Source: a virus
Lineage: Duplodnaviria; Caudoviricetes
Length of the DNA stretch: 64,000 nt
IMG/VR virus record: IMGVR_UViG_3300033183_000145
Location: 1,028-65,027 of that record
Direction: 5' to 3' (one strand)
Shown here: piece after piece, positions 36,056 to 59,100 of the stretch
Numbering within the stretch: the stretch's first letter is position 1
How the letters are laid out: every line of letters begins with the position of its first letter
The notes under the pieces: model-generated
The model's input: the letters and a program-made list of their open reading frames with translations, nothing else
The model's database searches: none
What the model was told of the DNA's origin: nothing
Program-made: the position numbers and the translations under genes

Positions 36056-36385
36056 GAACCGAAACGGATTCCCCAACCCCACCCCCCTAATATCTTCGAT
36101 ATTAGCGCAAATACTTTTAGCTTTTTACCTACTGACTTTCAGTCAGTTAGGTAGCCTCAGCTCTACCACTGATGCAAAGACCTGCGAAGCTTGTGCCGTC
36201 TTCGTTGCGGTGGGACAATCCCTCCCCAATCCATCCTTGAACCCTGACTCTTCCCCTTTCAGGGGAAACATTCGGTTCCGATTTGGTGGCTCTTCACGTT
36301 GGCTAACCTACGGATACAACAAGTTGTATCTCAGTGTGTTAGCAGGTTTCAACTCCACTACTACTACCAAGGGTAGTATGTAGTG
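36056..36385. other. Non-coding divergence region packed with hairpins (control region / possible origin or genome end)
   Basis: Inverted repeats at 36087-36105, 36126-36153, 36251-36267, 36313-36330 and 36356-36385; strand-switch point. Confidence 0.6.
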
Positions 36386-36401
36386 AAAAGCTGAGAGTGT
36401 A

Positions 36402-36470
36402 GAGAGATGTATTAAATGAAACGAAACTCTATGAGTTTCATTTAATACATTCTCTCATGTCAAACTTCAA
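36402..36470 (+). repeat. Early-region hairpin + TCAAACTTCAA element, copy 1
   Basis: gagagatgtattaaatgaaac...gtttcatttaatacattctctc; motif at 36460-36470 lies in the first codons of the ORF. Confidence 0.75.
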
Positions 36471-37044
36471 TTTCTCCGACTGCCGTAAGGCAACCAACCA
36501 AGCCATCTTCCGTCCAACTGCGGCCCGCAAAGCAGAAGCTGTAAAGCTTCTGACTGAAGCCTTGGACTTCATCAACAACCTCGAAGAGGTTGCCGACAAG
36601 CCTTCGAAGAAGGCTAAGACGAAGAAGCGTCGTCGTAAGACGACGAAGAAAGCGACTCCACAGCAACGAGTTGCTGACCGTCAAGAGAAAGCCTTCCACG
36701 GGAAGGCTGACAGCCCAGTCAAGCCTTGTTCCAAGGCTAAGACAGCTTCGGTAGAAGCTGCAAGAGAGTCAGCTAAAGCTGTTAGCGAAGCTACTGGTGC
36801 TGCTCAGAGAGCAGCAAAGAGAGCTGAACTCAAGGCTGAAGCCTTGAAGAAAGAGGCTAAAGCCTCTGAAGCGAAGCCGAAAGCTTCGAAGAAAGCGGTT
36901 GCTCAACCAAAGGTTGACGACTCTCGACTCTCTTCCTTGGAAGAGAAGATTGAGATGCTGACCAAGCTGATGGCCTTGCAGATGCAGGGTGAGCCTACAC
37001 AGGTCGAAACTGTTAGTTTCGATGAACTCCCTTTCGAACTCTAA
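36457..37044 (+). CDS. Lys/Ala-rich histone H1-like early protein
   Basis: 195 aa; K/A-rich low-complexity core; acidic-aromatic tail SFDELPFEL. Confidence 0.65.
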   Translation: MSNFNFSDCRKATNQAIFRPTAARKAEAVKLLTEALDFINNLEEVADKPSKKAKTKKRRRKTTKKATPQQRVADRQEKAFHGKADSPVKPCSKAKTASVEAARESAKAVSEATGAAQRAAKRAELKAEALKKEAKASEAKPKASKKAVAQPKVDDSRLSSLEEKIEMLTKLMALQMQGEPTQVETVSFDELPFEL

Positions 37045-37057
37045 TCCTTCATTGAAA

Positions 37058-37216
37058 ATGAACATTTGGCAACAACACATCAACGCCGACTACCATAGAA
37101 TGGTAGACGAAATCAAAGATATGGCTCGTTTCCAAGGAAACGACAAGGCGCTTGAGATGCTCGATGCAGTCATCGACTGCCTCAATGCTCAAAGAGCACA
37201 ATTCGAACAACTCTAA
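37058..37216 (+). CDS. Small early protein
   Basis: MNIWQQHINADY..., 52 aa. Confidence 0.55.
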   Translation: MNIWQQHINADYHRMVDEIKDMARFQGNDKALEMLDAVIDCLNAQRAQFEQL

Positions 37217-37226
37217 TTCATCGAAG

Positions 37227-37316
37227 ATGGACATCAACATCATCCTTTACGCCGTGTGCCTTCCGCTGAAAATCGTGACGCTCGCCTTGCTTTGGGTCGA
37301 TGCCAACTACGAATAA
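37227..37316 (+). CDS. Small hydrophobic (membrane) peptide, 29 aa
   Basis: MDINIILYAVCLPLKIVTLALLWVDANYE. Confidence 0.45.
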   Translation: MDINIILYAVCLPLKIVTLALLWVDANYE

Positions 37317-37322
37317 ACCCTT

Positions 37323-37408
37323 AGAGAGTCTTAGTATATATACTCTCTCTGAACGTAGTGAAGAGAGTATATATACAAGACACTCTTGAAACCTTTTTCA
37401 AACTTCAA
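37323..37408 (+). repeat. Early-region hairpin + TCAAACTTCAA element, copy 2
   Basis: agagagtcttagtatatatactctct-ctGAacGTAgtGA-agagagtatatatacaagacactct; motif at 37398-37408. Confidence 0.9.
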
Positions 37409-37418
37409 TTCAATCGCT

Positions 37419-37565
37419 ATGCAAAACTTTGCAGACATCCGCCGTCAGCTGATTGCTGACATCCTCGACTCTCACCTCTCCTTCGACGCAGTCCGTGCGA
37501 CTACGGACTGGGAGCAACTCACCTGCTTGGAGCAGATGACGTTGGAGGACTTGATTGATATGTAA
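37419..37565 (+). CDS. Small early protein (48 aa)
   Basis: MQNFADIRRQLIADILDS...; ATG 10 nt after the motif. Confidence 0.55.
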   Translation: MQNFADIRRQLIADILDSHLSFDAVRATTDWEQLTCLEQMTLEDLIDM

Positions 37566-37578
37566 TATCAATTTCACA

Positions 37579-37628
37579 GGCACACTGATGAGTCCTGAAT
37601 GGACGAAACGCCGTGAGGCGTCTGTGTC
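37579..37628 (+). ncRNA. Hammerhead ribozyme, type I
   Basis: Stem I GGCACA/UGUGUC, core CUGAUGA, stem II GUCC-UGAAU-GGAC, GAAA, stem III CGCC-GUGA-GGCG, GUC cleavage triplet (cut after 37622). Confidence 0.93.
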
Positions 37629-37649
37629 AAACTTCAAATTTCATCTACG

Positions 37650-38009
37650 ATGACAATAAAATCCTTATACTTCCTCGTTCAAGAGGGCGAGGGCTTCAGC
37701 GTCTGTGCTGACTTGCTCACCTACGGAGGTGGCGGCTATGCCGTCGGAGGTTCAGTCCCTGCCGTCGGCGTGTACAAGTACAAGAACGACGAGCTTTCGT
37801 TCAATCGTTTCAAAGAAACGATGGTGAATCTCCAGCGCGTATCAACTGATGTGACGCAGGTGATTGGTGCTTGGGTCGATGCCGACGGCATCGCTTACCT
37901 CGAAATCTCTGACGTAGTGCTTTCCAAGCAAGTGGCTCTCGAACTTGCACGAGCACGTGGAGAGAAAGCCGTCTACGACTTCGCTAACTCTGAATCCATC
38001 TACGTATGA
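37650..38009 (+). CDS. Early hypothetical protein
   Basis: 119 aa; IGAWVD...YLEISDV.....ALELA..RGEKAVYD conserved-looking motif. Confidence 0.65.
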   Translation: MTIKSLYFLVQEGEGFSVCADLLTYGGGGYAVGGSVPAVGVYKYKNDELSFNRFKETMVNLQRVSTDVTQVIGAWVDADGIAYLEISDVVLSKQVALELARARGEKAVYDFANSESIYV

Positions 38010-38233
38010 ACATCTGGGAACGCTACCCCAAGCGGGGCACGACGAGCGATTGGCGCCCCAAGGCGGTGCCAACCGACGAGTACCGAATGGTCTACTACTA
38101 CGGCTTCGACCGAGATGATTGGGATGCGCTCACGTTCAAGGCGTGGTCACTCGACCACGCGAAAGAGCGGGCACTCGAACTCGTCCCTAATGGACACCGC
38201 ATCAAGTCAGTCAAACCTGTTGATAATCAGTAA
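38006..38233 (+). CDS. Early hypothetical protein
   Basis: 75 aa, ATGA-coupled. Confidence 0.6.
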   Translation: MNIWERYPKRGTTSDWRPKAVPTDEYRMVYYYGFDRDDWDALTFKAWSLDHAKERALELVPNGHRIKSVKPVDNQ

Positions 38234-38248
38234 CTTAAACCCTTTCAG

Positions 38249-38329
38249 ATGAACAAACGATTGAACATCGCGTTCCTCGCATTCCTTGCGTGGATGGCCA
38301 CGCTTTTTGTGGTGGCTCTCCTCCACTAA
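38249..38329 (+). CDS. Small hydrophobic (membrane) peptide, 26 aa
   Basis: MNKRLNIAFLAFLAWMATLFVVALLH. Confidence 0.45.
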   Translation: MNKRLNIAFLAFLAWMATLFVVALLH

Positions 38330-38332
38330 ATA

Positions 38333-38406
38333 GAGAGGTGAGTATATTACTCTCTGAACGTAGTGAAGAGAGGTAATATACGAACCCTCTCAATGTCAAA
38401 CTTCAA
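38333..38406 (+). repeat. Early-region hairpin + TCAAACTTCAA element, copy 3
   Basis: gagaggtGAgtatattactct-ctGAacGTAgtGA-agagaggtaatatacGAaccctctc; motif at 38396-38406. Confidence 0.9.
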
Positions 38407-38418
38407 ATTTCCAATCCT

Positions 38419-38649
38419 ATGGACAACTTCTTCAAACGCCCCGTCGGTGCGGCGGTGCTCTACCTCAACGACTTCCACTTCGGCAAGCGACTCAATGACC
38501 TGAATCGGTGTGCTCGGCTTGTACCTGACGACGTGAAGGGCATGGCTTCCATCCTCTCGAACGTGCCACAAGCTGGCACCGCCACGGCAAAGCTTGCCAT
38601 CGACCAACTCGTTACATGGGCAGACGATGCCGAAAAAGCAGAGCAATGA
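38419..38649 (+). CDS. Early hypothetical protein
   Basis: 76 aa following element 3. Confidence 0.6.
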   Translation: MDNFFKRPVGAAVLYLNDFHFGKRLNDLNRCARLVPDDVKGMASILSNVPQAGTATAKLAIDQLVTWADDAEKAEQ

Positions 38650-38960
38650 AATTCACACACTCCTTCAAGACCACACTCCCCTTCGTGTCAATGCGGACAT
38701 CCTACGACGTAGACCTTGACGCCGCGAAGAACGTAGAGATGGACACCTCCATCGGGATTGACCCCAACCATCAGTATGGTGGGTGGTACGAAACCTACGA
38801 CCTCGAATCAGGAGGCGACCGCTTCTATGCAGGTGGTGTGCTCGAAGTGTACTGGGATGACAACGGAGAGGTACGCCTCACGGGGTACGATGGATGCTTC
38901 GAACTCCCTGAATATATCATCGAAGCCCTTGAAAAGAAGGGCGTAATCATTGACCTATGA
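38646..38960 (+). CDS. Early hypothetical protein
   Basis: Start MKFTHSF (ATGA overlap); LTGYDGCFELP motif. Confidence 0.6.
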   Translation: MKFTHSFKTTLPFVSMRTSYDVDLDAAKNVEMDTSIGIDPNHQYGGWYETYDLESGGDRFYAGGVLEVYWDDNGEVRLTGYDGCFELPEYIIEALEKKGVIIDL

Positions 38961-39154
38961 CACAAGACAAATGCGAACGTGCAGTCAAAGCACTGCAAGA
39001 ACAAGGCTTCTCTGCCTCCTATGTGCAGGGAGCACCTGACAACCACGGCGTATGGTTGGACAACGTATGGAATGACGCCCTTCAGGGAGCCTTTAGCTTC
39101 CGCATCCACGACGAAGAAATCGAATGGTGGCAAACCCAAAACAAACCAGTATGA
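38957..39154 (+). CDS. Early hypothetical protein
   Basis: 65 aa, ATGA-coupled. Confidence 0.6.
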   Translation: MTQDKCERAVKALQEQGFSASYVQGAPDNHGVWLDNVWNDALQGAFSFRIHDEEIEWWQTQNKPV

Positions 39155-39297
39155 CACAGGCAGAACGACTCGACAACCGCACGAAGAACTGCGGTAGCTT
39201 TGAACTTGCGCTCATCCGAGCGTGGTTCAAGGCCGACAACATCAACAAGAAGATTCTCGAAGCGGCCTTCAAGGACACCAACTTCGACCTAACATAG
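39151..39297 (+). CDS. Early hypothetical protein (48 aa)
   Basis: GSFELALIRAWFKADNINKKILEAAF; its stop abuts element 4. Confidence 0.55.
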   Translation: MTQAERLDNRTKNCGSFELALIRAWFKADNINKKILEAAFKDTNFDLT

Positions 39298-39378
39298 AGA
39301 GTGTTAGTATATATCTCTCTCTGAACGTAGTGAAGAGAGATATATACAACACCTCTCAATAACAAATTCAAACTTCAA
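39297..39378 (+). repeat. Early-region hairpin + TCAAACTTCAA element, copy 4
   Basis: gagagtgttagtatatatctctct-ctGAacGTAgtGA-agagagatatatacaacacctctc; motif at 39368-39378. Confidence 0.9.
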
Positions 39379-39388
39379 TTTAATTACG

Positions 39389-39649
39389 ATGGACAACATC
39401 AAGCAAATGACAAATGCGGAGTTCCTCACTCACCTGACGGAGGGCTACTCCAAGTACGGGGCACTCGTACAAATGGTGGTCATTGACTGCCTCGCCAAAG
39501 GACTCGACCAATACATCGAGCACAAGGAGGAAATCCTTGCAGACTACAAGGCTAACTGCGAAGCGGGCAAGTTCTCCTTCGTGAATATGGAGGCATGGGT
39601 AGCATGCTGTGAAGAAACCAAACAACGATTCAACGACAAGTACTCATGA
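39389..39649 (+). CDS. Early hypothetical protein
   Basis: 86 aa following element 4. Confidence 0.6.
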   Translation: MDNIKQMTNAEFLTHLTEGYSKYGALVQMVVIDCLAKGLDQYIEHKEEILADYKANCEAGKFSFVNMEAWVACCEETKQRFNDKYS

Positions 39650-39804
39650 AAATAACACTCGGACACAATCAAGTAGCCGTACTCGACTACTCCACACGAG
39701 AGGTGGACATCATCACCATCGCTAACCTCGACGACGTTGAGGATTTGGAATCAACACTATACGAACTTGGGTACAACCCATCTGAAATCTCATACATGGC
39801 ATGA
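39646..39804 (+). CDS. Early hypothetical protein (52 aa)
   Basis: Manual ORF MKITLGHNQVAVLDYST..., ATGA-coupled at both ends. Confidence 0.55.
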   Translation: MKITLGHNQVAVLDYSTREVDIITIANLDDVEDLESTLYELGYNPSEISYMA

Positions 39805-39954
39805 ACAACATCATCGAAGTAATTGTCGAGCTGTCCCGCATGCAGGGACAGGCAATCGACCGAGCACAGGCAGAGGCTCTCAACACTGCCATCGAAGCTG
39901 GCTACGACAAGTGGCAAGCAAGCAAGACATTTAATCTCAACAAAAGCAACGACA

Positions 39955-40389
39955 ATGGCTGATACACAAGTGAAAGACCAACCATGGGGTAGCTACTGGG
40001 ACAACGAAGGCAAGTACCAAGAGCAATACACAAAGGCATGGGAGAAACTTATCCCCTTCGAGGGTGAGGCAGAGGACGGGTGGCCCGAAGCCCTCCGTGC
40101 TATCTCCCGCATCGGCTACGACTACTACAACAACGGGTTCTGCAACCTGTGGAGGGAGTGGGATGATGGCGACAAAACTATGGATTCGTACTACAAGGGC
40201 ATGGTAGACTACCTGCGAGACCACGTACCGTCTGACCTGTACCGCGAGTTCAGGGGTTGGCTACCCACCATCAGATACGATAGCATCTCATGGGGTACGA
40301 ATGGTGACGACATCATCGACCGCATCATCAATCACATTATGGAAGGCATCATCGAAGATAGCCTTCTCGAAGAGGAATTGGTTGATTGA
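39955..40389 (+). CDS. Early hypothetical protein
   Basis: Start MADTQVK; YWDNEGKYQ...LIP..G...LRA..RI.YDYYNNG motif. Confidence 0.65.
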   Translation: MADTQVKDQPWGSYWDNEGKYQEQYTKAWEKLIPFEGEAEDGWPEALRAISRIGYDYYNNGFCNLWREWDDGDKTMDSYYKGMVDYLRDHVPSDLYREFRGWLPTIRYDSISWGTNGDDIIDRIINHIMEGIIEDSLLEEELVD

Positions 40390-40401
40390 AGTTTGACCAT
40401 C

Positions 40402-40448
40402 GAGGAGGCATGAGTGACTGAAACGTCAGTCCGCCTCCTCACTTTTTT
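40402..40448 (+). terminator. Terminator-like hairpin
   Basis: GAGGAGGC...GCCTCCTC followed by acTTTTTT. Confidence 0.55.
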
Positions 40449-40450
40449 CA

Positions 40451-40534
40451 AGGGAGCGCAGTCGGTGCGTACGTCCACGAATACCATGACCACTCAGGTC
40501 GGACGTCAGTTGTGTTCGATTCCCAACCTCCCTT
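40451..40534 (+). ncRNA. tRNA-like RNA with aberrant anticodon arm
   Basis: AGGGAG/CTCCCT acceptor, CGCA/TGCG D-like stem, ACGTCC/GGACGT stem with a 24-nt insert, GTTGTG-TTCGATT-CCCAAC T-arm. Confidence 0.6.
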
Positions 40535-40540
40535 CTATTT

Positions 40541-40623
40541 AGTATCTCTTACTATACACTCTCTTCATTTATGAAGAGTGTATAGTTAGAGAGACTTATA
40601 CGACTTCAAATTTCAAACTTCAA
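40541..40623 (+). repeat. Early-region hairpin + TCAAACTTCAA element, copy 5
   Basis: agtatctcttactatacactctcttcat-tt-atgaagagtgtatagttagagagact; motif at 40613-40623. Confidence 0.8.
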
Positions 40624-40632
40624 TTCAATACC

Positions 40633-41256
40633 ATGAAACAATATGCAGTAATCCACGCTGTCGCAGGACTCTTCGAAGGGTACTCCGACACCACTTGCGA
40701 GTTCTTCCCCAAGCGGAGTTTCGCAGACAAGCACATCAAGCAAATCCTCAGCGGCTACCGCAAGGATGAGATGTGCGTAGACATCGACGAATCAGACCCG
40801 ATGAACGTCATCGTCACCATGACCCGTCAGTACGAGGACTACCACGCTTGCGTCCCGTCTGACATGGACCATGACGATTGGGTGGCAGAGAGCGGCGACG
40901 ATTGCAGCGTCGAGGTGTTCCGCATCATCGAGGTTGACTTATCTGACCGCCCTGACTCCACCGAGTCATGCTGGCTCACGTGGGACCAAATCGAAACATG
41001 CCCTGCATGGGATTACTACCCTTTGTGTATGTCCTTGGTGGCTCGTGTTACATCCGATGTCCTTGACACAACCACCGACGGACAACCCACACAATCCTTG
41101 CACAACATGGCGCAACTCGGTGACTTCATCTCCTCGGTGTACTACGGCAACCACGCATTCATCGACCTCGATGACTACTCGATGCACGCTTTCCGCATCC
41201 CCAAACCCAACTTGGAATCACAATCTGTGATGTCAAGACGTCAGCCTACATCCTGA
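40633..41256 (+). CDS. Acidic early hypothetical protein
   Basis: 207 aa following element 5. Confidence 0.65.
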   Translation: MKQYAVIHAVAGLFEGYSDTTCEFFPKRSFADKHIKQILSGYRKDEMCVDIDESDPMNVIVTMTRQYEDYHACVPSDMDHDDWVAESGDDCSVEVFRIIEVDLSDRPDSTESCWLTWDQIETCPAWDYYPLCMSLVARVTSDVLDTTTDGQPTQSLHNMAQLGDFISSVYYGNHAFIDLDDYSMHAFRIPKPNLESQSVMSRRQPTS

Positions 41257-41354
41257 CAACCGTCCGTAAGACGTCAGGATTTACGCTGAACATACATGAC
41301 GGAATATCGCATCATTAACCCCTGATTTGAGCTATAAAGTAGGAAATATACATC

Positions 41355-41564
41355 ATGAAAAACACAATCAACTTCACCGACCTCGAAAAGCAAAAGCTTA
41401 TCGAACGTATCAGCCACGTGCTGAACTACACAGGGGCGTACACCGAGTTGCATAAGCTACTCGTTGACCGCGAAGAGGTGCTCCTACACACTGACATGGA
41501 GAACCTTGCCGATGAACTCGAAGAATTTATTTTCAACTGGACAAAAATCGAAGACGATGAATAA
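41355..41564 (+). CDS. Hypothetical protein
   Basis: 69-aa ORF, codon usage like neighbours. Confidence 0.55.
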   Translation: MKNTINFTDLEKQKLIERISHVLNYTGAYTELHKLLVDREEVLLHTDMENLADELEEFIFNWTKIEDDE

Positions 41565-41707
41565 AACAACACAAATCGCCCTATCCTTCATGGCCATCAT
41601 GCGGGACTACCAAGAGCGTCAGGAAGACGACCCAAACTTTGACCCACGTACACGGCTCTACGACCTGTACGACGAACTAGTATTTATCTACGAAAAAGCA
41701 AAAGACA

Positions 41708-41947
41708 ATGACGAGTAAAGACATCCAAGACTACATCGAGGTTGACCTCGGCTTCGCTATGCGTCACGACCCCGAGATGCTCCTCGAAGCAACACAGGAA
41801 ACCGCATCCACCTTTGAGCTTGACGAGTGGGGAGTCCTTCGGCTTGTGCTTGCCAACGAACCAATGACTGGTACACATAGCTATGGATTCCACACCCGCT
41901 ACGGCAGAGCAATCATTGACCACTTCTCATTTATCTACGGCTCATGA
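41708..41947 (+). CDS. Hypothetical protein
   Basis: 79-aa ORF in a coupled run. Confidence 0.55.
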   Translation: MTSKDIQDYIEVDLGFAMRHDPEMLLEATQETASTFELDEWGVLRLVLANEPMTGTHSYGFHTRYGRAIIDHFSFIYGS

Positions 41948-42132
41948 TGCGAGTACACGACCTCCTCAGTGCTAACCCGTACGACGGGGACTACCGCATC
42001 CGAGTAGAGCACATCGAACGTGAAGCCCCTGAAACTACACGACAACTCAAGAAACATTTACAAACTTCACCTCAACTCAAGAGCGTAGTCATTGACTGCG
42101 TCAATTCAATCTTCAAAGCAACATTACAATGA
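41944..42132 (+). CDS. Hypothetical protein
   Basis: 62 aa, ATGA overlaps. Confidence 0.5.
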   Translation: MMRVHDLLSANPYDGDYRIRVEHIEREAPETTRQLKKHLQTSPQLKSVVIDCVNSIFKATLQ

Positions 42133-42872
42133 ACTCATTCCAAGAATCCAAGAACGAACTCGAAGCGGCTATCCGCTACGCAGAGAACGCTATCTCATCT
42201 GCACAGGGGACTATCGAATCGATGGAGTTCCGCCAAGAGATGGCGAAGAAAAACTACCAAGAACAGACAGGTCGTGAGAAAGCTCTCCAAGCTCAGGTCG
42301 GTGAACTCAAGTCCGAGTGCGCCGTTCTTGCGGAGCGTATTGATGAGATGAAGGACGCCGCGTTTGCCGATGCCAACACCATCAAGCACCTCAAGGAGGC
42401 AAACATGAGCCTCGTGTGCGACAACGACGACCTCAAGGATGAGCGCACCATGTTAGAGAAGAACGTCAAGTACCTGCGTGACGAGAACGAACGACTGAAG
42501 CGTGAGAAGGAAGCATCAAGCGGACCATGCGGATGCCAAGCATACCGCGACCTCGAAGAGAAGGTTGCTACTATGCCCGTCATCCCTCGTGACGTAGCCA
42601 TCGCCATCTTCCGTGAGGGTACGTTGTTTGGGGTAGAGGCCGCTTGCGATGAGATTCAGGGGGAGACCATCAACATCAGCGAGAGCGACTACGTCGGTGA
42701 CTTCTCCATCTCATTCGAGCGTGACATCGACCTCGACGGCTTCATCGACTTCGACTGGGTGCGTAGCAAGATTGGTGACTACGACGAAGACAACGTCACT
42801 GCCAACCTCAAAGGGCTGTGTGCCAAGAGCAACTTCGAGTGTCGTATCCACGGAATCGACGACAATGACTAA
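42129..42872 (+). CDS. Coiled-coil protein
   Basis: 247 aa; heptad-rich N-terminal half. Confidence 0.65.
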   Translation: MNSFQESKNELEAAIRYAENAISSAQGTIESMEFRQEMAKKNYQEQTGREKALQAQVGELKSECAVLAERIDEMKDAAFADANTIKHLKEANMSLVCDNDDLKDERTMLEKNVKYLRDENERLKREKEASSGPCGCQAYRDLEEKVATMPVIPRDVAIAIFREGTLFGVEAACDEIQGETINISESDYVGDFSISFERDIDLDGFIDFDWVRSKIGDYDEDNVTANLKGLCAKSNFECRIHGIDDND

Positions 42873-43281
42873 TCAAGTGAACGTAAAGCCTGAGGTAATC
42901 ATCCGCAGGTTACACTTCACACAAGGCAAGACTCCCGAGGAGATTGCTCAGATGTGGAGATTCGAATTGAAATATGTAGAACAAATCATTAACACAGAAA
43001 AATTTAAAACCATGAAGAAGACAAAGATGTCTGCCAAGACGCGCAACAAGCGCATCGTACAACTCCGAAAGGAAGGACTTACTCAAGAGGCTATTGCCGA
43101 CAATGTAGGATGTAGCACAAGCACGGTCCAACGTGTGCTCGGTAGCCGACCACGTCAGCAACAGGTTACCAAGCCAGTAGCCAAGAAGGTTGTCAAGCCC
43201 AAGGCTTCACCGAAGACTGGCTTCGTCACCGAGTACAGCATTCTGTGGGGTGCGTTCAAGTTCGTCAAGACTAGCGCGTGA
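42865..43281 (+). CDS. Helix-turn-helix DNA-binding protein (two HTH-like segments)
   Basis: GKTPEEIAQMW...YVEQII and EGLTQEAIADNVGCSTSTVQRVL. Confidence 0.65.
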   Translation: MTNQVNVKPEVIIRRLHFTQGKTPEEIAQMWRFELKYVEQIINTEKFKTMKKTKMSAKTRNKRIVQLRKEGLTQEAIADNVGCSTSTVQRVLGSRPRQQQVTKPVAKKVVKPKASPKTGFVTEYSILWGAFKFVKTSA

Positions 43282-43469
43282 CGGACGAATACATGGATGA
43301 GCTCATGCGCCGCATCGACAACAAGATGCAGGCGTATGAACTCTACCGCAGACCACAAGACAAGATGATGTTGGAGTGTATGCTCCAAGACTACGAAGCA
43401 AAACAGAAACTCAAACTTCAAGATGAAGCAAAAGAAGAAACGATTTCAGGTACGATTCCACCTTGGTAA
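43278..43469 (+). CDS. Hypothetical protein
   Basis: 63 aa, GTGA overlap. Confidence 0.45.
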   Translation: MTDEYMDELMRRIDNKMQAYELYRRPQDKMMLECMLQDYEAKQKLKLQDEAKEETISGTIPPW

Positions 43470-43884
43470 GGGTGAGAACTACATGTGTTGGCAAGTGAAG
43501 GACTTCGGTGTCAACCGAGCCGCCAACAACGGCAAGGCTAGTATCGACTACTACGCCCCATCAAACGTAGCCCTTGAGCTAACCAACTGCACCCTGCGTA
43601 ACTCTCCAGCTACGGCCATGAAGATTTACAACGGCCAAGCCAAGACAGTATGTGCGTGGGTAGAGTGCGACATGATCGACGTACACTACAAGAAGTCCCC
43701 TGACTTTGAGCGTCCACCCATCAAGAACATGGACAAGTACAAGTACAACCCACGCAAGCACATGCACTGGTTCACCAAGCGTCTACGTAACGCAGACAAC
43801 AAAGAGCTGAAGAAAATGTACACTAATAACAGAGCCATTTATGGACAAGTTTCAAAGATTCCTTCGCAACATAGCGAAGGGTGA
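43423..43884 (+). CDS. Hypothetical protein
   Basis: 153 aa; VRFHLGKGENYM.WQVK...KTVCAWVEC; preceded by TCAAACTTCAA at 43411-43421. Confidence 0.6.
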   Translation: MKQKKKRFQVRFHLGKGENYMCWQVKDFGVNRAANNGKASIDYYAPSNVALELTNCTLRNSPATAMKIYNGQAKTVCAWVECDMIDVHYKKSPDFERPPIKNMDKYKYNPRKHMHWFTKRLRNADNKELKKMYTNNRAIYGQVSKIPSQHSEG

Positions 43885-43943
43885 GAACAAGAGCGCACGC
43901 GCACGACGACGTCTAATGGAGCGGGAACTGAACAAACTAAATA

Positions 43944-44324
43944 ATGACAGAACAACAAGTGATGGAGTGGATGGAGGACTACCTCGACGGGACTAAGGTC
44001 GAGCTAACTGCCCTCGGTATGATTAAGGCAGACATTGCAGAACATGGGTTTGAGAACTGGCTTCACATGCCAGCCATACCTATCGTCGAGTGGTATCTAG
44101 AAACAACCAACGAAGTAGCAACACAACTAGTACACGACTACAAGACTATGCTCGACCAAGAAAAAGAACTCGACGAGCTAGGCATCAAGCAATCCATGAA
44201 GCTCGACCCCGTGCAGAGCATGGACGCATTCAAGGGTGGTGTGCTCGAAGTGTTTGAATCCTTGCTACTCTATCTAACCGTACAAGAAATGGCATCAGCA
44301 TACTATGGAGAACACACACATTAA
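43944..44324 (+). CDS. Hypothetical protein
   Basis: 126-aa ORF. Confidence 0.6.
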   Translation: MTEQQVMEWMEDYLDGTKVELTALGMIKADIAEHGFENWLHMPAIPIVEWYLETTNEVATQLVHDYKTMLDQEKELDELGIKQSMKLDPVQSMDAFKGGVLEVFESLLLYLTVQEMASAYYGEHTH

Positions 44325-44745
44325 GCAGATGATGCTCGAAGCACGCCGCGAATACGAGCATCGGTTGGGATATGACATCGACGAAGACTCCCGACTACAA
44401 CACTACGTGCAGGACAGAACTGCACTAGCTAACGCATGGAGGCCTTATACTTCTTACCGAGAGATTGGTGAGGTTTTCGGCAAGGACCATAGCACAATCG
44501 TGCACTACTGCAAGGAGCACGAGCCTATGCTCAACACATACGCTAGCTATATGTCCAAGTTCGACGATGCCGTCGAGGTGACGCAACGTGTAGCCCATCG
44601 ACTAGCCGTACATCCTAAGATGAAGTACGGGAAGTCACGTAACCTACATGATGAGCTAATGGTTATCAGAAACACAATCAAGAACTTACGTCAATTCGAA
44701 AAAAAAATCGAGCTAATGCTTGCATCTAATGGGACGTCTACGTAA
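44305..44745 (+). CDS. DnaA domain IV-like HTH protein
   Basis: SYREIGEVFGKDHSTIVH matches the DnaA C-terminal signature (S...IG..F..RDHTTV.H). Confidence 0.7.
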   Translation: MENTHIKQMMLEARREYEHRLGYDIDEDSRLQHYVQDRTALANAWRPYTSYREIGEVFGKDHSTIVHYCKEHEPMLNTYASYMSKFDDAVEVTQRVAHRLAVHPKMKYGKSRNLHDELMVIRNTIKNLRQFEKKIELMLASNGTST

Positions 44746-52145: not shown

Positions 52146-54044
52146 ATGAAAACCTTTATCACTACCCTCCTACTGGCAATTACCTTTTCGAGCATAGCTC
52201 AAGAGTGTAGCCTCTTAGTGCCTGATAACGTGAAAGTTATGGGCATGAGTCGAACTGATGTTAACCTCGCAGAGGTTGATACAGTGGTACTACCCATTGT
52301 GTTCCATATCGTGCACACTGGGGCTGGCGAAGAAAACAACATCTCCGACGAACAAATCATGTCGCAGGTCGATGTTTTGAATGATGAGTTCGCTGACAGT
52401 AAGATTCAGTTCTGTATGGCCGTGCGAGATCCTGAAGGCAACCCAACCAACGGCATCACTCGCACCGATTACAGCTGGAACAAGGAGTATGTAGCCAATG
52501 GTATCAGCAATGGCTCAGGTGGCGGAGCTGACCAGACACAAGTAAAGTCTGACGCGGGGTGTTGGAACCCTGAAGAGTACATCAACTTTTACGTGGTTAA
52601 CGAGATCAATGGGAATGACGGGGGATGGGGTATTCAGGGATTTGCTTACCTCGGACCTACTGGTGATTGCAGAGACGGTGTGGTGTGTCTGTACAACGTA
52701 ACGGGCAACATAGGTACGCTGAAGCCAGGTCGAGAGCTTGGGTTTACGGGGGTCCACGAGATGGGTCATCACCTTTCTCTTTGGCACACATTCTCTAACT
52801 CGAACGACTGCGTAGAGACGAACTGCGAGACTCAGGGTGATCAGGTATGCGACACTCCGCCAACCACCCCGAATGATATTGGGTGCGTTGCCGCAGATTG
52901 CCCCGACGCTTTGCTTGAGAACTTTATGGACTACACTCCCGAGACTTGTAGGGAGTCGTTTACTGTTGGTCAAGCTGAGCGTATGCACGAATGCTTGCAG
53001 ACTGTGAGGTCTGGCCTTCTCGACAACCTGTCCTGTGTGCCTATAGTAGACTACGACGCGACACCGCTAACAGCCTACTATCAGCAGACGTGGTGCACCC
53101 CAACTCAGGATATTTGGATCGACGTAGTAAACCAAGGAACGCTCCCTTTGGACGTCATCGAGGTGCAGCTCTACGTCAATGGAAACCAATACGCAGAATA
53201 CTTATACGACGTTCCTACTGGCACCCACGAAGTGTTGTTTGAGAACGTATATGTTGATGGAGCCCAGATGTTCGAGGTCCAAGTAGTTAGCTCCCTTGAT
53301 CAATATCAAGACAACGATTACTCTTGGTGGCCTATCGAGACTGTCTCTGGGGAGCTTATGAATATCACCGTAGGGACGGACAACTGGGCCAACGAAGTCG
53401 ACTGGGTGCTCTACGATGAGTTTGGGGAAATTGTAACTGGGGATGGGGACTATCCTTTTGGGGTGAATACATACGAGTATGAGGTATGCGTCTACGAGGG
53501 TTGCTATACCTTCGAGGCCACCGACACTAACGGAGATGGGATGTGTTCTTTGGACTTCGGTAACGATGGTATTTGCGACATTGGAGGGGATGGGATTACG
53601 GCCAGTGTTAATGGGAGTGTCATCTTCGCTACGGAGCAAACGGAGTACTCTCTCTTCGACACAACCTTCTGCTTCTCTATTGGGGATTGCCCTCTTGACT
53701 TTGACGGTAACGGAACCGTAGGCAATGGTGACGTGCTTGATATGATACTTGAGTACGGGTGTCAGTCTGGATGCCAGACGGACCCAAACAACGATGGTAT
53801 CGTAAACGTAATGGACCTACTCTACATGCTCACCAACTTGGGCGATTGCCCGCTTGAGCAAGACCTCTCTATAGGTATGCTTAAGGACGTAACCCTTGCC
53901 GCAGCATCGGCAGGAGGTGTTGGAAAAAATCCTCAGATCTACGACATGACGGGGCGGAGGGTTCGAGGCCCTGTGGAGTCCCTGGCCACGGGAGTCTACA
54001 TTCTGAAGTGGGAAAGTGTAACCAAGAAAGTATTTGTACAATGA
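52146..54044 (+). CDS. Secreted M43 (pappalysin/ulilysin-like) zinc metalloprotease with dockerin-like repeats and T9SS type A C-terminal signal
   Basis: Signal peptide ...SSIA-Q; LPIVFHIVH; HEMGHHLSLWH; GDQVCDTP; Met-turn NFMDY; D.DGNG.V...D repeats; IYDMTGR.V...GVYILK....KKVFVQ. Confidence 0.88.
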   Translation: MKTFITTLLLAITFSSIAQECSLLVPDNVKVMGMSRTDVNLAEVDTVVLPIVFHIVHTGAGEENNISDEQIMSQVDVLNDEFADSKIQFCMAVRDPEGNPTNGITRTDYSWNKEYVANGISNGSGGGADQTQVKSDAGCWNPEEYINFYVVNEINGNDGGWGIQGFAYLGPTGDCRDGVVCLYNVTGNIGTLKPGRELGFTGVHEMGHHLSLWHTFSNSNDCVETNCETQGDQVCDTPPTTPNDIGCVAADCPDALLENFMDYTPETCRESFTVGQAERMHECLQTVRSGLLDNLSCVPIVDYDATPLTAYYQQTWCTPTQDIWIDVVNQGTLPLDVIEVQLYVNGNQYAEYLYDVPTGTHEVLFENVYVDGAQMFEVQVVSSLDQYQDNDYSWWPIETVSGELMNITVGTDNWANEVDWVLYDEFGEIVTGDGDYPFGVNTYEYEVCVYEGCYTFEATDTNGDGMCSLDFGNDGICDIGGDGITASVNGSVIFATEQTEYSLFDTTFCFSIGDCPLDFDGNGTVGNGDVLDMILEYGCQSGCQTDPNNDGIVNVMDLLYMLTNLGDCPLEQDLSIGMLKDVTLAAASAGGVGKNPQIYDMTGRRVRGPVESLATGVYILKWESVTKKVFVQ

Positions 54045-55060
54045 GAGCGGTACTATTGTGGTTTCTGATTCCTGTTCTGTCCTATGGGCAGGGAATATGC
54101 GATATGGAGATCATAGGGTTTAACCCCATCTCCACGGATATAACAATCGCTATTAACGGAGGGTACTGCACGCCTGAGGCTGGGGATTCTATCGGTGAGT
54201 TCTTATTGTCTCTGGCATTTAATCCAGCGCTAGACGATAACGGAGACTGGGGGTGTATATACCCTAACGGATGGGCATACCTCATCTTCCCACTCAACTT
54301 CCCTGGTTTCGACATAGGCGAAGGAGCGGATCAGATACTCCAGACAGGGGATACTGTTTCTTTTACCCTCGATGAGATACCAACGTTTGGAAGCGGAACA
54401 GCGGCATGCTGGATAGACATCATGCAAAGCGGAGCATACTATGAAGAGTGCCTTGTTCTTACTGTGTGGCAAATCAACGATAGTCACCCACTTGACGGAA
54501 GCAACACTGGACTAGGTGGATTCCCATACCCTGATGCCAACATCTTCAATTCGTGGATTATGTGGAGCCTTAATGGAGCGTGCGATCCACCACCTCCCCC
54601 TATCGTATACGGGTGTACAGATATGTTTGCGTACAACTACAACTTCGCTGCTTCGCAGGATGACGGAACGTGCGTATATCAGGGGTGTCAAGACCCTCTG
54701 GCACTTAACTATTGCGAGGAGTGTGAAGTAGAAGGGCCATGTATCTATGAGCCTCCAGGAGGTGAGGATTGCAGCGATCCACTGATCTTTATAGCAAACA
54801 CCTTTAGTCCCAACAACGATGGTCTTAACGACTACTGGAAGGTCGTTACAAGGGCAGAGTGCTGGCTCACATGGGAGCTCAGGATCTACAATAGATGGGG
54901 CACGCTCGTATGGATGAGCTACGACCCAGACGCTAAATGGATAGGGGAAAGGCTTGATGCCTTTGTCCCTGACGGTGTATACACCTGGGCTCTCAAGGCC
55001 AAAACTTATGAATCAACGAAGGTTGTGGACATGGCTGGCCACGTCACCATATTCAGGTAG
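54041..55060 (+). CDS. Secreted protein with gliding-motility-associated (T9SS type B, CHU_C) C-terminal domain
   Basis: Signal peptide ...LSYG-Q; GCTD..AYNYN..A..DDGTC repeat; NTFSPNNDGLND.W...IYNRWG...W.G...DGVY.W......G.VTIFR. Confidence 0.88.
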   Translation: MRAVLLWFLIPVLSYGQGICDMEIIGFNPISTDITIAINGGYCTPEAGDSIGEFLLSLAFNPALDDNGDWGCIYPNGWAYLIFPLNFPGFDIGEGADQILQTGDTVSFTLDEIPTFGSGTAACWIDIMQSGAYYEECLVLTVWQINDSHPLDGSNTGLGGFPYPDANIFNSWIMWSLNGACDPPPPPIVYGCTDMFAYNYNFAASQDDGTCVYQGCQDPLALNYCEECEVEGPCIYEPPGGEDCSDPLIFIANTFSPNNDGLNDYWKVVTRAECWLTWELRIYNRWGTLVWMSYDPDAKWIGERLDAFVPDGVYTWALKAKTYESTKVVDMAGHVTIFR

Positions 55061-55707: not shown

Positions 55708-56144
55708 TTTTTGGACTTTTCGAGGGTTCTTCCAGCAAAGTATGCGCCAAAAGATGTTAGCATAAGAATCTCCAGCAAAGATACATAACTTTCCTTCACG
55801 TTAAAGGGCAGGTAATCAAGCGAGTCCAGCACCATGGTCACCATGAACATGGCCATGAGAGCGATCAAAGTCACTGGTCTGATGTACTTTGCGAGCTTGA
55901 CGTCGCTCCCCATATCAGCCTTCCATCTTTCAGTTACATTGTTCTGATAGGCTATCTCTGCGTCAAGGACTGCCTTGGCTTCTGCAGGGTCTACACTATC
56001 ATCATTATCGAGAAGGTTCTTCACTATCCCGAGAGCTCCCTGATCTGGCAAAAGATCACCCACTGTATCCAATACACTAGGCGCTTTATCTTTTAGCCAC
56101 TTGCCAAGGTTGGTGTCTTTGATCTTATTTTCTTGCTTGCTCAT
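55704..56144 (-). CDS. Putative holin (GTA 3TM-holin-like)
   Basis: VTERWKADM.SD..L.K.IRP, two TM segments, FGAYFAGRTLEK. Confidence 0.7.
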   Translation of the reverse strand: MSKQENKIKDTNLGKWLKDKAPSVLDTVGDLLPDQGALGIVKNLLDNDDSVDPAEAKAVLDAEIAYQNNVTERWKADMGSDVKLAKYIRPVTLIALMAMFMVTMVLDSLDYLPFNVKESYVSLLEILMLTSFGAYFAGRTLEKSKK

Positions 56145-59100
56145 ATCTCTTGTTGAACTCCATGATTATCTTTCTTTCCTTCTCTCTGAGCTCCTGTATT
56201 CTCGCTATGCGTTGAGCATACGGGAGCTTGTTTGCTTCTCTTTTAGCAGCTCTTAGCTGACGGAGCATCTTGTCTACCTTATTCAGGTAGTTATCCATTC
56301 CTCTAGTAATGCCTCTGTGTCTTTCTGGATCGTATTCTCCAGATGCCTTTATTTCCTTTACGTAAGACTTGAGCTCTTGCTTGTTCTCGTTAAACAACTC
56401 AAAGTCATAGTACTTAGATGGCTCTCCGTAAAGTATACGCGCAAGAGGTATCTCATTTGCCTCAATCTTTATGTCTTCTCCAGAAGAGAACTTAGAGACT
56501 ATCTTCTTTGGAACTGCAACAGATCTGTTTACAAACTGACCAGCTGATCCGATATAGTACTCGAACATGTACCAAAGCTTATCTGGATTAAAATCAAGTC
56601 CTCCAGATTTGTACTCACTTCCACCAGTGGCTTCATTCATCCACTTGAAGAAGTCCTTCACGGCCTCAGGGGATCTGAAAGAAAGCTCTGACTCTGGGCG
56701 CTGAACTCCGAACGGGAGATTCTCTCCTGTTACTGGAGCTCCAAAGTAAGTTTCATTCACCATGACCTCAACCCAAGGCTTGAGTACCGTTGGAACTGCT
56801 CCCTTACCGACGCTCGTCATAAGGTCTTTAGACTGACCAAACGATACTGGAGAGAACGAGGCCATAAATGAGTTAAACAAGAACATCATCGCCTCATCAG
56901 CCTCCTTGCCTCCGTGAGCAGACTCTACCATAGCTGTACCCATGTTTGCAAACACGTTAAATCCATACGGCATAGGAATCTTAAAGTAGTCCTTTCCGTT
57001 GGGGCGCATAATGATAAGGTTTCTTTCCTTCACGTAATCTGGAATCTTGTCCCAGTATGGAGTTCCGTCTTCATCGTCGTCAGACATAGCGTAGCCAAGC
57101 TGCGCGAGCATAGCGCTAAACGTCGTCAATCCAGCAGCCATCCATTGTGCTGCGTTGACTCTTTCAACTCCCTTTCTTCTTGTGCCGTCTACCCTTGTTT
57201 CGGGTTTAAGCGTAAGCAACGACCTTCCAAGTCTTGCTGTACCCTGTATAGATGCGTTGAAGAACAAGTAAACAGCATTTAGGGCTGGACCCCATTCGCC
57301 CTGCTTATTGAAGTTAACAGTGATGTTCTTTGCAAGCTGAGCTGCCTTTTCTCTGCTGACTCCATTCTCCCTTGCAGCTATGTATGCAGCAAGCCTGATG
57401 CTATTCTCAAAGGCGTCGTTAACGCCCTCGATTGTTTCTGCAAAGTTCTTAGCCTTGCCGAGTATCTCTTGAGTTCTTGTCGTATCACTAGCAGCATTTT
57501 CAAGGTCGCTAGCTATTTGGTCTAGAGATCTTGCGTATGCCCAACCTGTCTTACCTCCGTCTTCTTTAAATTCTTGGAAATACTTCTCAATAGCTGGGTC
57601 TCCGCCTCTCTGAACAGAGTTCTTGACGAGCGTTTTAAGCGTTTGAGGAACAAGCTTCATCATCCTCTTGATGGTGCCCTTGCTGTTCAGCATTCCACCC
57701 TCTATATCGGCCTCTGCTGCTGCGTTAAATATAGCAGACTGAATATCTCTAGAGAAGTTGGATATCATAAACTCTGGGTTCAGAGTCGTGAATGACCTTC
57801 TCAGCCATTGTGCTGGAACTCTGAGCGCTCTTATGAATGCGTTGGTCTGTGGGAGGTTCATTCCCTTCAGGCTTTCAGCATAGCTTGGGTCCTTAAAGAA
57901 TATGAACTTCTGCTCTCCATTGATTCTTACTGCGACAACTCTCGCGTCGTTGGGGTTCTGAACCTGACTCGCATCAAGTACTCTCCAAACCTTAGGATTA
58001 GGAGTATCCTTAATCAGGTTGTATAGAGTCGTGAGGGCTTCGTTGGTTCTGGCCTTTATGTGGATTCCTGCATTTTGAGCAACAATCTGAGCGAGAATGT
58101 TTTCAGCTTGACTCTTTCTACCTTGTGCTCTCTTGGTCGTAGATCCAAATACGTTCATGCCAGCCCCTCCAGTGGGATATGGAGATCCAAGATCTTCGTC
58201 TACAGCTACTCCAGCCAAAGGAACATAGTTGCTAAACATAGACTCAAAGGCATCAACAGTATCCTTGGTCTCAAGACCATACTTAACCATTGTGTCCCTT
58301 GTGTCTTGCTGTATCTCTCTGACCTTAGCAACGATTGGGTCCAGCTGAGCCTTGTTTGCGGAGTTGATGATTGCATCAGCCTCAGCGTTGGACATGCCAC
58401 TACCATCCTTTATCGCTCCATTCGTTCTTTGCTCAATGATGGCATTGCGTTCCTTGGCGTGCAGGGCGTACAGGTACTGAGACAATGCAGTAACATCTAT
58501 GCCAGAGTCCTTCATCATCTTGGTGATCTCCTCGACCTTCTTGTCGAGTTTAGCGAGATCTTCTGCGGCCTTGCCGTACATGAGCTCTTCAGCCATTTTG
58601 AAGTCCTTGTCTTTCGACAGCGGACCAAACTGCTTCTCTATAGACTGTTGCAGATTAAATATGTCTACATACTTGTCCTGAAGCCTTCTTATCCAAAGGT
58701 TTTTCCACCTCTGGAATCCAGTGTGGTTAGGGGCGTCCCAGGCTTTGTGCTTTCTCTTGCCAGCCGATCGCCTAATCGTGTCTTCTCCATCTGAGTGTGT
58801 AACCGTCTCCTCTCCTACGACTTGACCAGTAACACCCTTGGCCGCATAGAATGATTCCTGAGCCTCAAGGTAATCTTCGTATCTGTCGAATTTGTTTGCT
58901 TCGTCTGAAGCTTCAAATTCTTCCTTGGACATGAACTTAGCGAAGAATCTTTTTTCACCTTTGTCGTACCCCTTCGCCTCTGGGTATGCGTCTGCTATAC
59001 CCATCTGCTCTCTCAGGAAGCCCATCTGCTCCACTCTGGAGTCGTACTCTTCCTGAGTTTCACCGTCAAGCTTTGTTATAGCAAGCCCGTAAGAGAATGC

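Follow-up and report, generated by a model that had tools for sequence, protein, structure and literature searches.

Here we examine a 64,000-nt stretch of viral DNA (hereafter the window) that corresponds to bases 1028–65027 of a 65,027-bp IMG/VR virus record, IMGVR_UViG_3300033183_000145, which is rated complete and derives from an uncultured marine phage. In the early region of this phage, the junctions between blocks of small genes carry modules that consist of a structured element followed by a short motif, TCAAACTTCAA, which we refer to as the leader motif. Five of these modules contain a long hairpin and one contains a hammerhead ribozyme. Among related phages, hairpins, hammerheads and transfer RNA (tRNA)-like elements replace one another at sites that share the leader and the downstream gene. 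We interpret the junction elements as RNA punctuation modules through which every block of early cistrons acquires a standard leader, a reading to which we assign a probability of about 0.5.

The five long hairpins of the original prediction, which was made from the sequence of the window, are all present at the positions first claimed (Table 1). Their stems comprise 21–27 bp with few bulges. Folded as RNA, they reach −26 to −29.8 kcal/mol with z-scores from −5.2 to −6.1 (hairpin 1, −6.1), and none of 200 shuffles folded as well. Folded as DNA, they have z-scores of −4.3 to −7.0, with either strand equally good. Hairpins 2, 3 and 4 begin 6, 2 and 0 nt past the upstream stop codon, in agreement with the claim that these copies lie within a few nucleotides of a stop. 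The stems had also been described as differing between copies while pairing is kept. Pairing is indeed kept, but the difference between copies does not extend to the apex, as hairpins 2–4 have one identical 19-nt tip, CTCTGAACGTAGTGAAGAG. Hairpins 1 and 5 have other tips, and the ‘TTTA’ tip type of hairpin 5 is found again at other junctions in relatives. None of the five hairpins is followed by a T-run and the terminator scan called none of them, so they do not have the form of intrinsic terminators. Rfam contains no family for these hairpins, the search returning just microRNA-like and plastid 3′ untranslated region noise far under threshold.

The leader motif is strongly concentrated in the early region. 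There are nine exact matches to TCAAACTTCAA in the window, eight on the plus strand and one on the minus strand, and with ≤1 mismatch the count rises to 13, compared with 2.3 expected; 13 was reached in none of 100 shuffles. Seven of the eight exact plus-strand copies fall within 36460–43421, and the eighth, at 19540, is within a minus-strand gene. As first described, the motif follows each hairpin and in copies 2–5 an ATG comes 9–12 nt later; the gaps for hairpins 2–5 are 10, 12, 10 and 9 nt. Conservation does not stop at the motif and extends through to the start codon (...TTCATCTACG-ATG). The ATCTACG-ATG part of this sequence also stands before internal genes that lack the motif, at 38006 and 41944. 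Given the conservation up to the ATG and the presence of the signature at internal genes, a translation-start region fits better than a promoter. At some sites the distance from motif to ATG is just 1–4 nt, into which a −10-type element cannot fit. These sequence patterns support the view that the motif belongs to a leader for translation start that reaches the ATG, and that it would act at the level of translation.

At the junction where a hammerhead had been claimed in place of a hairpin, the catalytic core and three stems are present, and the assignment is strengthened by covariation among 24 distinct copies. The core (CUGA[U/C]GA, GAAA and GUC) is kept in the window copy and in 24/24 distinct copies. 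Across the latter, 360 of 360 cells are paired and 7 of 15 pairs change on both sides, with such changes in all three stems. This was matched by 0/500 shuffles, and controls in which the alignment was slid were 20–55% paired. The predicted cut falls 4 nt before the motif, and the distance from GUC to motif is 4 nt in all 24 copies. Furthermore, the 3′ strand of stem I uses the first two bases of the leader, both in the window copy and in all 24 distinct hammerheads. As a hammerhead works only in RNA and in cis, at least the hammerhead junctions should be transcribed through. The Rfam model RF00163 gives the window hammerhead 23.4 bits, under its gathering score of 34; it found no gathering-score match in 10 related loci and none at E ≤ 1 in positions 6050–7450 of one of the relatives, L021. 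The loop of a small hairpin that lies just before the ribozyme encloses the stop codon of a 48-aa gene, and in relatives the stem of this hairpin varies with pairing kept, as judged by eye.

Relatives were found by an exact scan of IMG/VR for the 19-nt tip, which yielded 53 stretches, most of them in the lineage that carries the leader (individual loci are designated by L numbers). With ≤1 mismatch allowed, the fetched viral loci and the window together contain 191 distinct leader sites, a few of which are chance matches in unrelated contigs. The 110 nt upstream of these sites contain a tip-bearing hairpin in 54 cases, a hammerhead-like element in 25 and another strong hairpin in 90, a class that includes the plain TTTA tip and a double hairpin found before the first gene; the remaining 22 have little structure. 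We grouped the 165 leader sites that have a following open reading frame (ORF) by the first residues of that ORF, and obtained 17 groups with at least three sites. More than one type of upstream element occurs in 12 of the 17 groups, and in six a hammerhead in some phages is exchanged for a hairpin or tRNA-like element in others. In the group of genes that begin with MKHHDLML, for example, L012 has a tRNA-like element and L013 a hammerhead. Thus, related phages do swap hairpin and hammerhead at orthologous junctions, and the proposal that the hairpin and the ribozyme fill one functional slot is borne out by this comparison.

The double hairpin replaces hairpin 1 before the first early gene in many relatives (L009, L013, L021, L044, L050 and others) and is conserved. 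Pairing is possible between the loop of its second hairpin and the 3′ arm of the first. No Rfam match to it was found.

The junction modules are also the places where gene cassettes are exchanged. The window shares 85 blastn blocks of ≥150 nt with 21 relatives. Of these, 52 begin within a junction module, where 14% would be expected, although the blocks are not independent. Block ends, unlike block starts, cluster at the ends of gene blocks. Gene order is changed in L012 and L025. The modules therefore share with the PeSL cassettes of T4-type phages the property of being exchange points for gene cassettes in a hyperplastic region.

At the end of the first early operon, TTGAAGTTTGA spans the last stop codon. 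It is the exact reverse complement of TCAAACTTCAA, and we refer to it as the anti-leader. The GC-rich hairpin behind it (40402–40449) is followed by a T-run and covaries in relatives. Anti-leader and terminator are kept together behind varying upstream genes in L017, L018, L020, L027 and L056, and with one mismatch in L040. The anti-leader could be a small RNA, derived from the 3′ end of the operon, that pairs with all early leaders. A tRNA-like element comes next. Relatives have one to three of these elements per genome, singly or in runs of two or three, after the early-operon terminator. They are of several sequence types and have one conserved T-stem mismatch, seen in the window, L018, L021, L023, L049 and L056. 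In L012, L020, L021 and L025 the tRNA-like element directly abuts the leader, without an intervening hairpin. The elements were called as tRNAs neither by ARAGORN nor by Rfam in the early region of the window, and ARAGORN likewise called none in 14 related loci.

Table 1. Features of the junction modules and associated elements, in window coordinates.
Feature	Position	Strand	Description
Junction hairpin 1	36394–36456	+	Precedes first early gene; ~21 bp stem, 12-nt loop, tip unlike that of hairpins 2–4
Leader copy 1	36460–36470	+	Overlaps the start region of the 195-aa first early gene (ATG at 36457)
Junction hairpin 2	37322–37388	+	19-nt tip CTCTGAACGTAGTGAAGAG at 37347–37365; RNA z −5.2
Leader copy 2	37398–37408	+	ATG at 37419
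Small hairpin TTGATAT-GTA-ATATCAA	37555–37571	+	7 bp, GTA triloop; just before the hammerhead
Type I hammerhead	37579–37628	+	CUGAUGA, GAAA, GUC at 37620–37622; predicted cut after 37622
Leader after hammerhead	37627–37637	+	ATG at 37650, gap 12 nt
Junction hairpin 3	38331–38389	+	Tip at 38352–38370; RNA z −5.5
Leader copy 3	38396–38406	+	ATG at 38419
Junction hairpin 4	39294–39360	+	Tip at 39319–39337; upstream stop TAG within 5′ arm; RNA z −6.0
Leader copy 4	39368–39378	+	ATG at 39389
Anti-leader and terminator	40386–40456	+	TTGAAGTTTGA at 40386–40396, GC-rich hairpin, T-run; end of first early operon
tRNA-like element	40451–40534	+	Mimic of acceptor and T-arm, TTCGATT loop
Junction hairpin 5	40541–40596	+	Fully Watson-Crick tip CTTCATTTATGAAG; RNA z −6.0
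Leader copy 5	40606–40623	+	Exact at 40613–40623, overlapping a one-mismatch copy at 40606; ATG at 40633
Leader-like motif, one mismatch	42106–42116	+	Inside the end of the upstream ORF, without hairpin; ATG at 42129
Exact leader motif without hairpin	43411–43421	+	ATG at 43423

The 19-nt tip is not confined to this phage lineage. In addition to the 53 viral stretches, the exact 19-mer occurs in 86 prokaryotic stretches from a set with one genome per species. The carriers belong to Bacteroidota, Bacillota, Chloroflexota, Proteobacteria and Patescibacteria and include two archaeal records; some genomes have multiple copies. The predicted fold of the tip is a CTCT/AGAG stem, two tandem G·A pairs, an AC/GT helix and a GTA triloop. 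Variants recur in 1.22 Mb of fetched loci (AC-GAA-GT 25 times, GT-GCA-AC 11, GC-GGA-GC 4, GC-GCA-GC 4, and others), where by a rough estimate only one or two would be expected at random. Across them the inner 2-bp helix covaries and the GNA loop is kept. In unrelated viral contigs the same 19-mer caps hairpins with very different stems. The two positions just outside the 19-mer, both left free in the search, are paired in 46/47 and 43/47 sequences (47 of 56 distinct contexts), with 11 and 8 double changes.

Many of the prokaryotic copies are tagged: GTCA before and TC after the palindrome are found in 56 of 91 distinct prokaryotic contexts. Among 29 distinct viral contexts, the GTCA tag occurs in none and TC in two. 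In four prokaryotic loci (L081, L124, L135 and L142), single-domain GIY-YIG ORFs of 93–110 aa adjoin tagged copies; an NCBIfam scan of these small ORFs gave nothing above cut-off, and the 65-kb phage record yielded no match to GIY-YIG. None of 120 distinct 19-mer contexts fits the SRM search expression as published. Based on these sequence features, the tagged bacterial copies look like a subfamily of the Ssn/NTS system or of the CGTC-tagged REPs, and the hairpin tip of the phage early region would belong to a cross-phylum family of small hairpin repeats that looks DNA-level. Its kinship with Ssn/NTS-like DNA repeats makes a DNA-level role possible. A match to a known repeat family had been named at the outset as grounds for giving up the prediction; this applies in part to the tip, but not to the module as a whole.

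In seven high-GC viral or prophage contigs (L010, L030, L034, L041, L047, L051 and L061) the 19-mer lies antisense in replication-initiator-like genes (Phage_rep_O, DUF1376 and HTH_36), where it encodes SSLRSE. This site is in a low-complexity linker, adjoining a purine-rich repeat, and we take the linker to be where lambda-type origins sit.

Two further observations concern tip copies outside the lineage. A metagenome-assembled genome of Cyclobacteriaceae (L140, 5950–7010) has seven tagged 19-mers within ~1 kb, whose spacings of ~56, 146 and 491 nt form a recurring pattern. In two unrelated phages (L016, 9414–9470, and L039) the 3′ arm of the tip hairpin contains the Shine-Dalgarno sequence of the downstream gene, and these hairpins, as RNA, would mask the ribosome site.

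Signals for transcription of the early block are sparse. The TAnnTTTG host-type box is not found in any intergenic position on the plus strand between 36.0 and 44.7 kb, nor at any junction; such boxes precede genes at 44743, 46270 and 52131. A scan for sigma-70-type promoters gave 6 sites compared with 8.3 expected, none of them correctly placed at a junction leader, and terminator and promoter scans showed no excess over shuffles. Among the proteins scanned there is no phage RNA polymerase or sigma factor, the sole sigma-related match being a weak region-4-like helix-turn-helix in the ORF at 42649–43281. The lack of a phage RNA polymerase and of host-type boxes in the early block is consistent with few promoters and long transcripts. 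For the phage phi14:2, a preprint reports that a motif common to the regions upstream of its early transcripts was not found, so that this phage provides no template.

One candidate polymerase was considered and rejected as unsupported. The ORF at 56125–63975 on the minus strand encodes a 2616-aa polyvalent protein with an LPD38 domain and with PHROG matches of no assigned function. It lacks the DFDxD motif expected of a crAss-like or N4-like virion RNA polymerase and has no PDB match at E ≤ 0.01; Pfam gives LPD38 alone, and the atlas neighbours of residues 1–1750 are clusters of polyvalent proteins (LPD families).

Public sequencing runs share few words with the window: the best DNA run reaches 0.20 and two metatranscriptomes 0.05–0.06, with none reaching half. 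The RNA evidence consists of contigs of relatives from the two metatranscriptomes. In these RNA-library contigs, the hammerhead of a relative, in which stems II and III differ, shows as loose ends at 37571 and 37620. The same repeats also interrupt DNA contigs, so the contig ends are no evidence either way.

How might the modules work? We propose that each early cassette opens with a junction module in which a structured element is joined to the G-poor leader UCAAACUUCAA(W)UUCAUCUACG-AUG. Four kinds of structured element would be interchangeable, namely a 22–27 bp hairpin with a GA/GNA tip, a TTTA-tipped hairpin, a type I hammerhead and a tRNA-like element. The early region would be transcribed as long RNAs, which the junction elements punctuate in different ways: the hammerhead by self-cleavage 4 nt before the leader, the tRNA-like elements through RNase P/Z-type processing, and the hairpins as sites for a double-strand-specific nuclease, as blocks to exonucleases, or both. 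If transcribed, the hairpin stems would offer about two helical turns of double strand, as T7-type RNase III sites do. Through such punctuation, all cistron blocks would have a defined end and share one translation-start leader. The anti-leader ahead of the terminator may pair with the leaders and so shut early genes off, and the repeated modules may double as homology for cassette shuffling. Arguing for this scheme are the swaps with two kinds of element that act only in RNA, the strict sense orientation, the placement between stop codon and leader, and the anti-leader.

Several observations weigh against RNA punctuation. Neither the TAnnTTTG nor the sigma-70-type scan found a promoter for the early block, and the metatranscriptome contigs come without molecule ends. 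In the stems, G-U pairs number 164 of 3953 in the sense orientation versus 321 of 4166 in the antisense, so that there is no sense-strand excess, although this is a weak test as the sequences are related. The first early gene, too, has a hairpin in front of it, at a place with nothing upstream that needs to be cut off. The remaining points stem from the distribution and chemistry of the tip. Inside the replication-initiator-like genes the 19-mer is antisense, so punctuation of messenger RNA would be senseless there. The tagged copies beside tiny GIY-YIG genes resemble Ssn/NTS, a system that binds single-stranded DNA and not RNA. Finally, the invariant tip, a C-GNA-G triloop with tandem G·A pairs, is of a kind of hairpin that is unusually stable as DNA.

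An alternative explanation, which we consider unlikely, is that the modules are PeSL-like terminator/promoter cassettes. The hairpin would then stop or attenuate the upstream unit, the hammerheads would merely trim read-through RNA, and TCAAACTTCAA would serve as a promoter element of the early genes, recognized by the host RNA polymerase, perhaps after its modification by a phage factor that is injected. The layout is what such cassettes would produce, with modules every ~1 kb in a hyperplastic, ORFan-rich region and homology blocks that begin at them, as in the available portions of the PeSL papers (PMC2839356, PMC4122927). Modules also stand where promoters are needed, before the first early gene and before the first gene past the operon terminator. 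Given that the early block is without host-type −7 boxes, some other promoter signal must exist. In addition, the minus strand has an inverted copy (40386–40449), hairpin then motif, that resembles an antisense promoter in having no ORF behind it. Counter to this, the motif is unlike both the TTG/TAnnTTTG consensus of Bacteroidota and the sigma-70 hexamers, for which the scan found fewer sites than expected, and no phage polymerase or sigma factor was found among the proteins scanned beyond the weak helix-turn-helix match. The hairpins do not have the T-runs of terminators. The proximity of the motif to the ATG and the conservation between them are also difficult to reconcile with a promoter. 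Moreover, a junction that has a hammerhead or a tRNA-like element would need to be transcribed through from upstream.

A second alternative, to which we give about as little credence, places the function in DNA. The tips would be untagged copies of a CGTC/TGTC-tagged REP (Ssn-type) hairpin, and the hairpins would fold on the single-stranded plus strand during replication, recombination or supercoil-driven extrusion. They could be sites of recognition, nicking, priming or recombination, selfish DNA, or decoys for a host hairpin nuclease, and their intergenic position would reflect merely where insertions are tolerated. The occurrence of the exact 19-mer across viruses and many phyla, including archaea, is readily explained in this way, as are the covariation of the inner helix with the GNA loop, the absence of a sense-strand G-U excess and the hairpin before the very first early gene. 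So are the NTS-like tags, the neighbouring GIY-YIG ORFs and the antisense copies in replication-initiator-like genes, as REPs within replication genes are on record in the part of the literature available (PMC3733652). Yet the viral copies are essentially untagged, the phage has no GIY-YIG gene, and no copy matches the SRM expression as given in the available text. All tip copies of the phage lineage have the sense orientation, start at a stop codon and have the leader after them. There, tips are replaced by Watson-Crick tips, hammerheads and tRNA-like elements within the same flanks, which points to a job that RNA elements can do. A promoter of the N4 type, as far as the accessible description of that system goes, would have its stable hairpin on the template strand; here it is on the coding strand, and a virion RNA polymerase was not found.

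The RNA punctuation reading and the wide distribution of the tip may be compatible. It is possible that the lineage needs just a very stable hairpin in the slot, given that tips can also be Watson-Crick, as in hairpin 5. The widespread tip may then simply have been acquired, or may be the best nucleation unit to be had. More speculatively, the arrangement stem-GA-NN-GNA-NN-GA-stem might be a portable recognition signal, used at phage early-gene junctions, in phage replication-initiator genes and in bacterial Ssn-type repeats, that in the present lineage marks cut sites for a hairpin-specific nuclease of host or phage. In this joint reading, which we regard as doubtful, the mini-hairpin would be the protein-dependent equivalent of hammerhead and tRNA punctuation, the three replacing one another in evolution before a single standard leader, and the conserved anti-leader RNA would control the whole class.

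That the spacing and motifs are products of chance or assembly is refuted to near certainty: the 9.75-kb viral contig L017 repeats itself in inverted orientation, with tips mirrored on both strands, and is probably an assembly artefact, but the fold z-scores of −4.3 to −7, the motif count that 0/100 shuffles reached, the hammerhead covariation and the recurrence of the same modules in dozens of contigs from different samples all speak against it.

The modules are embedded in a genome of familiar layout. The minus strand up to ~35.5 kb carries structural genes (terminase, portal and virion proteins). On the plus strand, the block of small genes starts at 36.4 kb and gives way to replication genes, which include a primase/helicase, ribonucleotide reductase, a PD-(D/E)XK protein and a DnaA-like helix-turn-helix protein. 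The large terminase subunit, TerL, is 41–50% identical to that of Flavobacterium, Cellulophaga and Maribacter phages, and positions 52146–55060 hold one gene for an M43 peptidase and another that carries a CHU_C type IX secretion signal domain. Based on the TerL relatives and the CHU_C domain, the host is likely a member of Bacteroidota. For the plus-strand block at ~36.4–43.5 kb, the best explanation is that it forms the early, ORFan-rich, cassette-built region of a podophage-like Bacteroidota virus. No DNA-level match to the early block (36300–44000) was found among GenBank phages. Some further readings were considered and set aside: the tip as a K-loop or a sarcin-ricin-like motif, pairing of the leader with the 5′ end of 16S rRNA, the reverse-complement motif as a weak −7 box, and an analogy with integron attC sites. 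No integrase was noticed in the window, in which no systematic search for one was made.

The first early gene (36457–37044) encodes a basic protein rich in Lys and Ala that ends in ...SFDELPFEL, like the acidic tail of single-stranded DNA-binding protein (SSB); no Pfam match was found for it. This SSB-like tail could matter if the hairpins act as single-stranded DNA.

The purpose of self-cleaving ribozymes in phage genomes has been a standing question since they were found flanking phage genes. The sister phages described here constitute a natural substitution experiment, in which a hammerhead, a long hairpin or a tRNA-like element precedes the same leader and the same gene. Given such swaps at the same junction, the role of the hammerhead can be tested directly by comparing the variants. 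Were the tip a portable signal, these swaps of ribozyme, hairpin and tRNA-like element would offer a direct handle on what phage hammerheads are for. The leader, with its matching anti-leader, is a candidate standard translation leader for Bacteroidota-type expression, which does without Shine-Dalgarno sequences. The tip, in turn, links phage early-region hairpins to cross-phylum DNA hairpin repeats that are apparently Ssn-related, and an interplay between phage and host in hairpin recognition is possible.

Comparison with known systems begins with T7, the analogue originally proposed. In the polycistronic early RNA of T7, RNase III sites are hairpins between the early cistrons, and RNase III needs a minimum stem length. 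The hairpins described here likewise separate early genes, and their stems of 22–27 bp are long enough for RNase III. They differ from the T7 sites in being near-perfect palindromes with an invariant tip, in place of the T7-type internal loop, and in having no sense-strand G-U signature.

Phage N4 also uses small hairpins in its early region. According to the available part of the source (PMC4496689), these promoter hairpins need a G:C closing pair and a loop with 5′ G and 3′ A for extrusion, and the hairpin on the template strand is the active one, read by a packaged RNA polymerase. The chemistry of the tip is the same in our phage, but the stable hairpin is on the coding strand and a virion RNA polymerase was not found among the proteins scanned.

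The Ssn/NTS system offers a closer parallel to the bacterial copies of the tip. In the accessible text of PMC11893778, NTS is a CGTCA-palindrome-TC repeat that flanks ssnA, the gene of a 94-aa GIY-YIG nuclease, and SsnA binds and cuts the NTS hairpin solely as single-stranded DNA, with no RNA interaction. A superfamily of CGTC-tagged REPs is described in the portion available of PMC3733652. The bacterial tip copies resemble these repeats in having GTC(A) before and TC after the palindrome and in lying near GIY-YIG genes of ~94 aa. The phage copies depart from them in having neither the GTCA tag nor a nuclease gene, and no copy of the 19-mer, phage or prokaryotic, matches the SRM expression. 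Unlike the NTS consensus, as far as it is given, the apex of the tip carries tandem G·A pairs.

The original prediction knew of no description of the combined architecture. This holds for the whole, but parts of it have precedents in PeSL cassettes and prophage hammerheads. In the literature covered, supplementary tables apart, we did not find a slot shared by hairpin, hammerhead and tRNA-like element before one leader; nor did we find the GA-bracketed GNA tip described, although supplementary tables could hold such sequences.

PeSL cassettes, according to the sections available (PMC2839356, PMC4122927), combine a strong sigma-70-like promoter with a working terminator in stem-loop cassettes of T4-type phages. 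The present modules are like them in that a stem-loop and an expression signal are repeated through a hyperplastic, ORFan-rich early region and serve as exchange points for shuffling. They are unlike them in that there is no match to a host-type promoter and no T-run terminator, the signal runs to the ATG, and a hammerhead or tRNA-like element can take the place of the stem-loop.

Hammerheads in prophages flank genes, and processing of long phage RNAs to gene-length messenger RNAs has been proposed for them (PMC3088659, in the part available). The same source describes HHphage of the haloviruses HF1 and HF2, a hammerhead that lies 13 nt ahead of an early start codon and at whose cut a 5′ end has been mapped. 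The hammerhead in the window similarly occupies an intergenic slot of a phage operon. Thus each ingredient, whether hammerheads at phage genes, PeSL cassettes or REP/Ssn hairpins, has a precedent in the portions of the literature considered. What distinguishes the present phages from those prophage hammerheads is that the ribozyme is one option of several at orthologous junctions and is fused to the leader at a distance of 4 nt.

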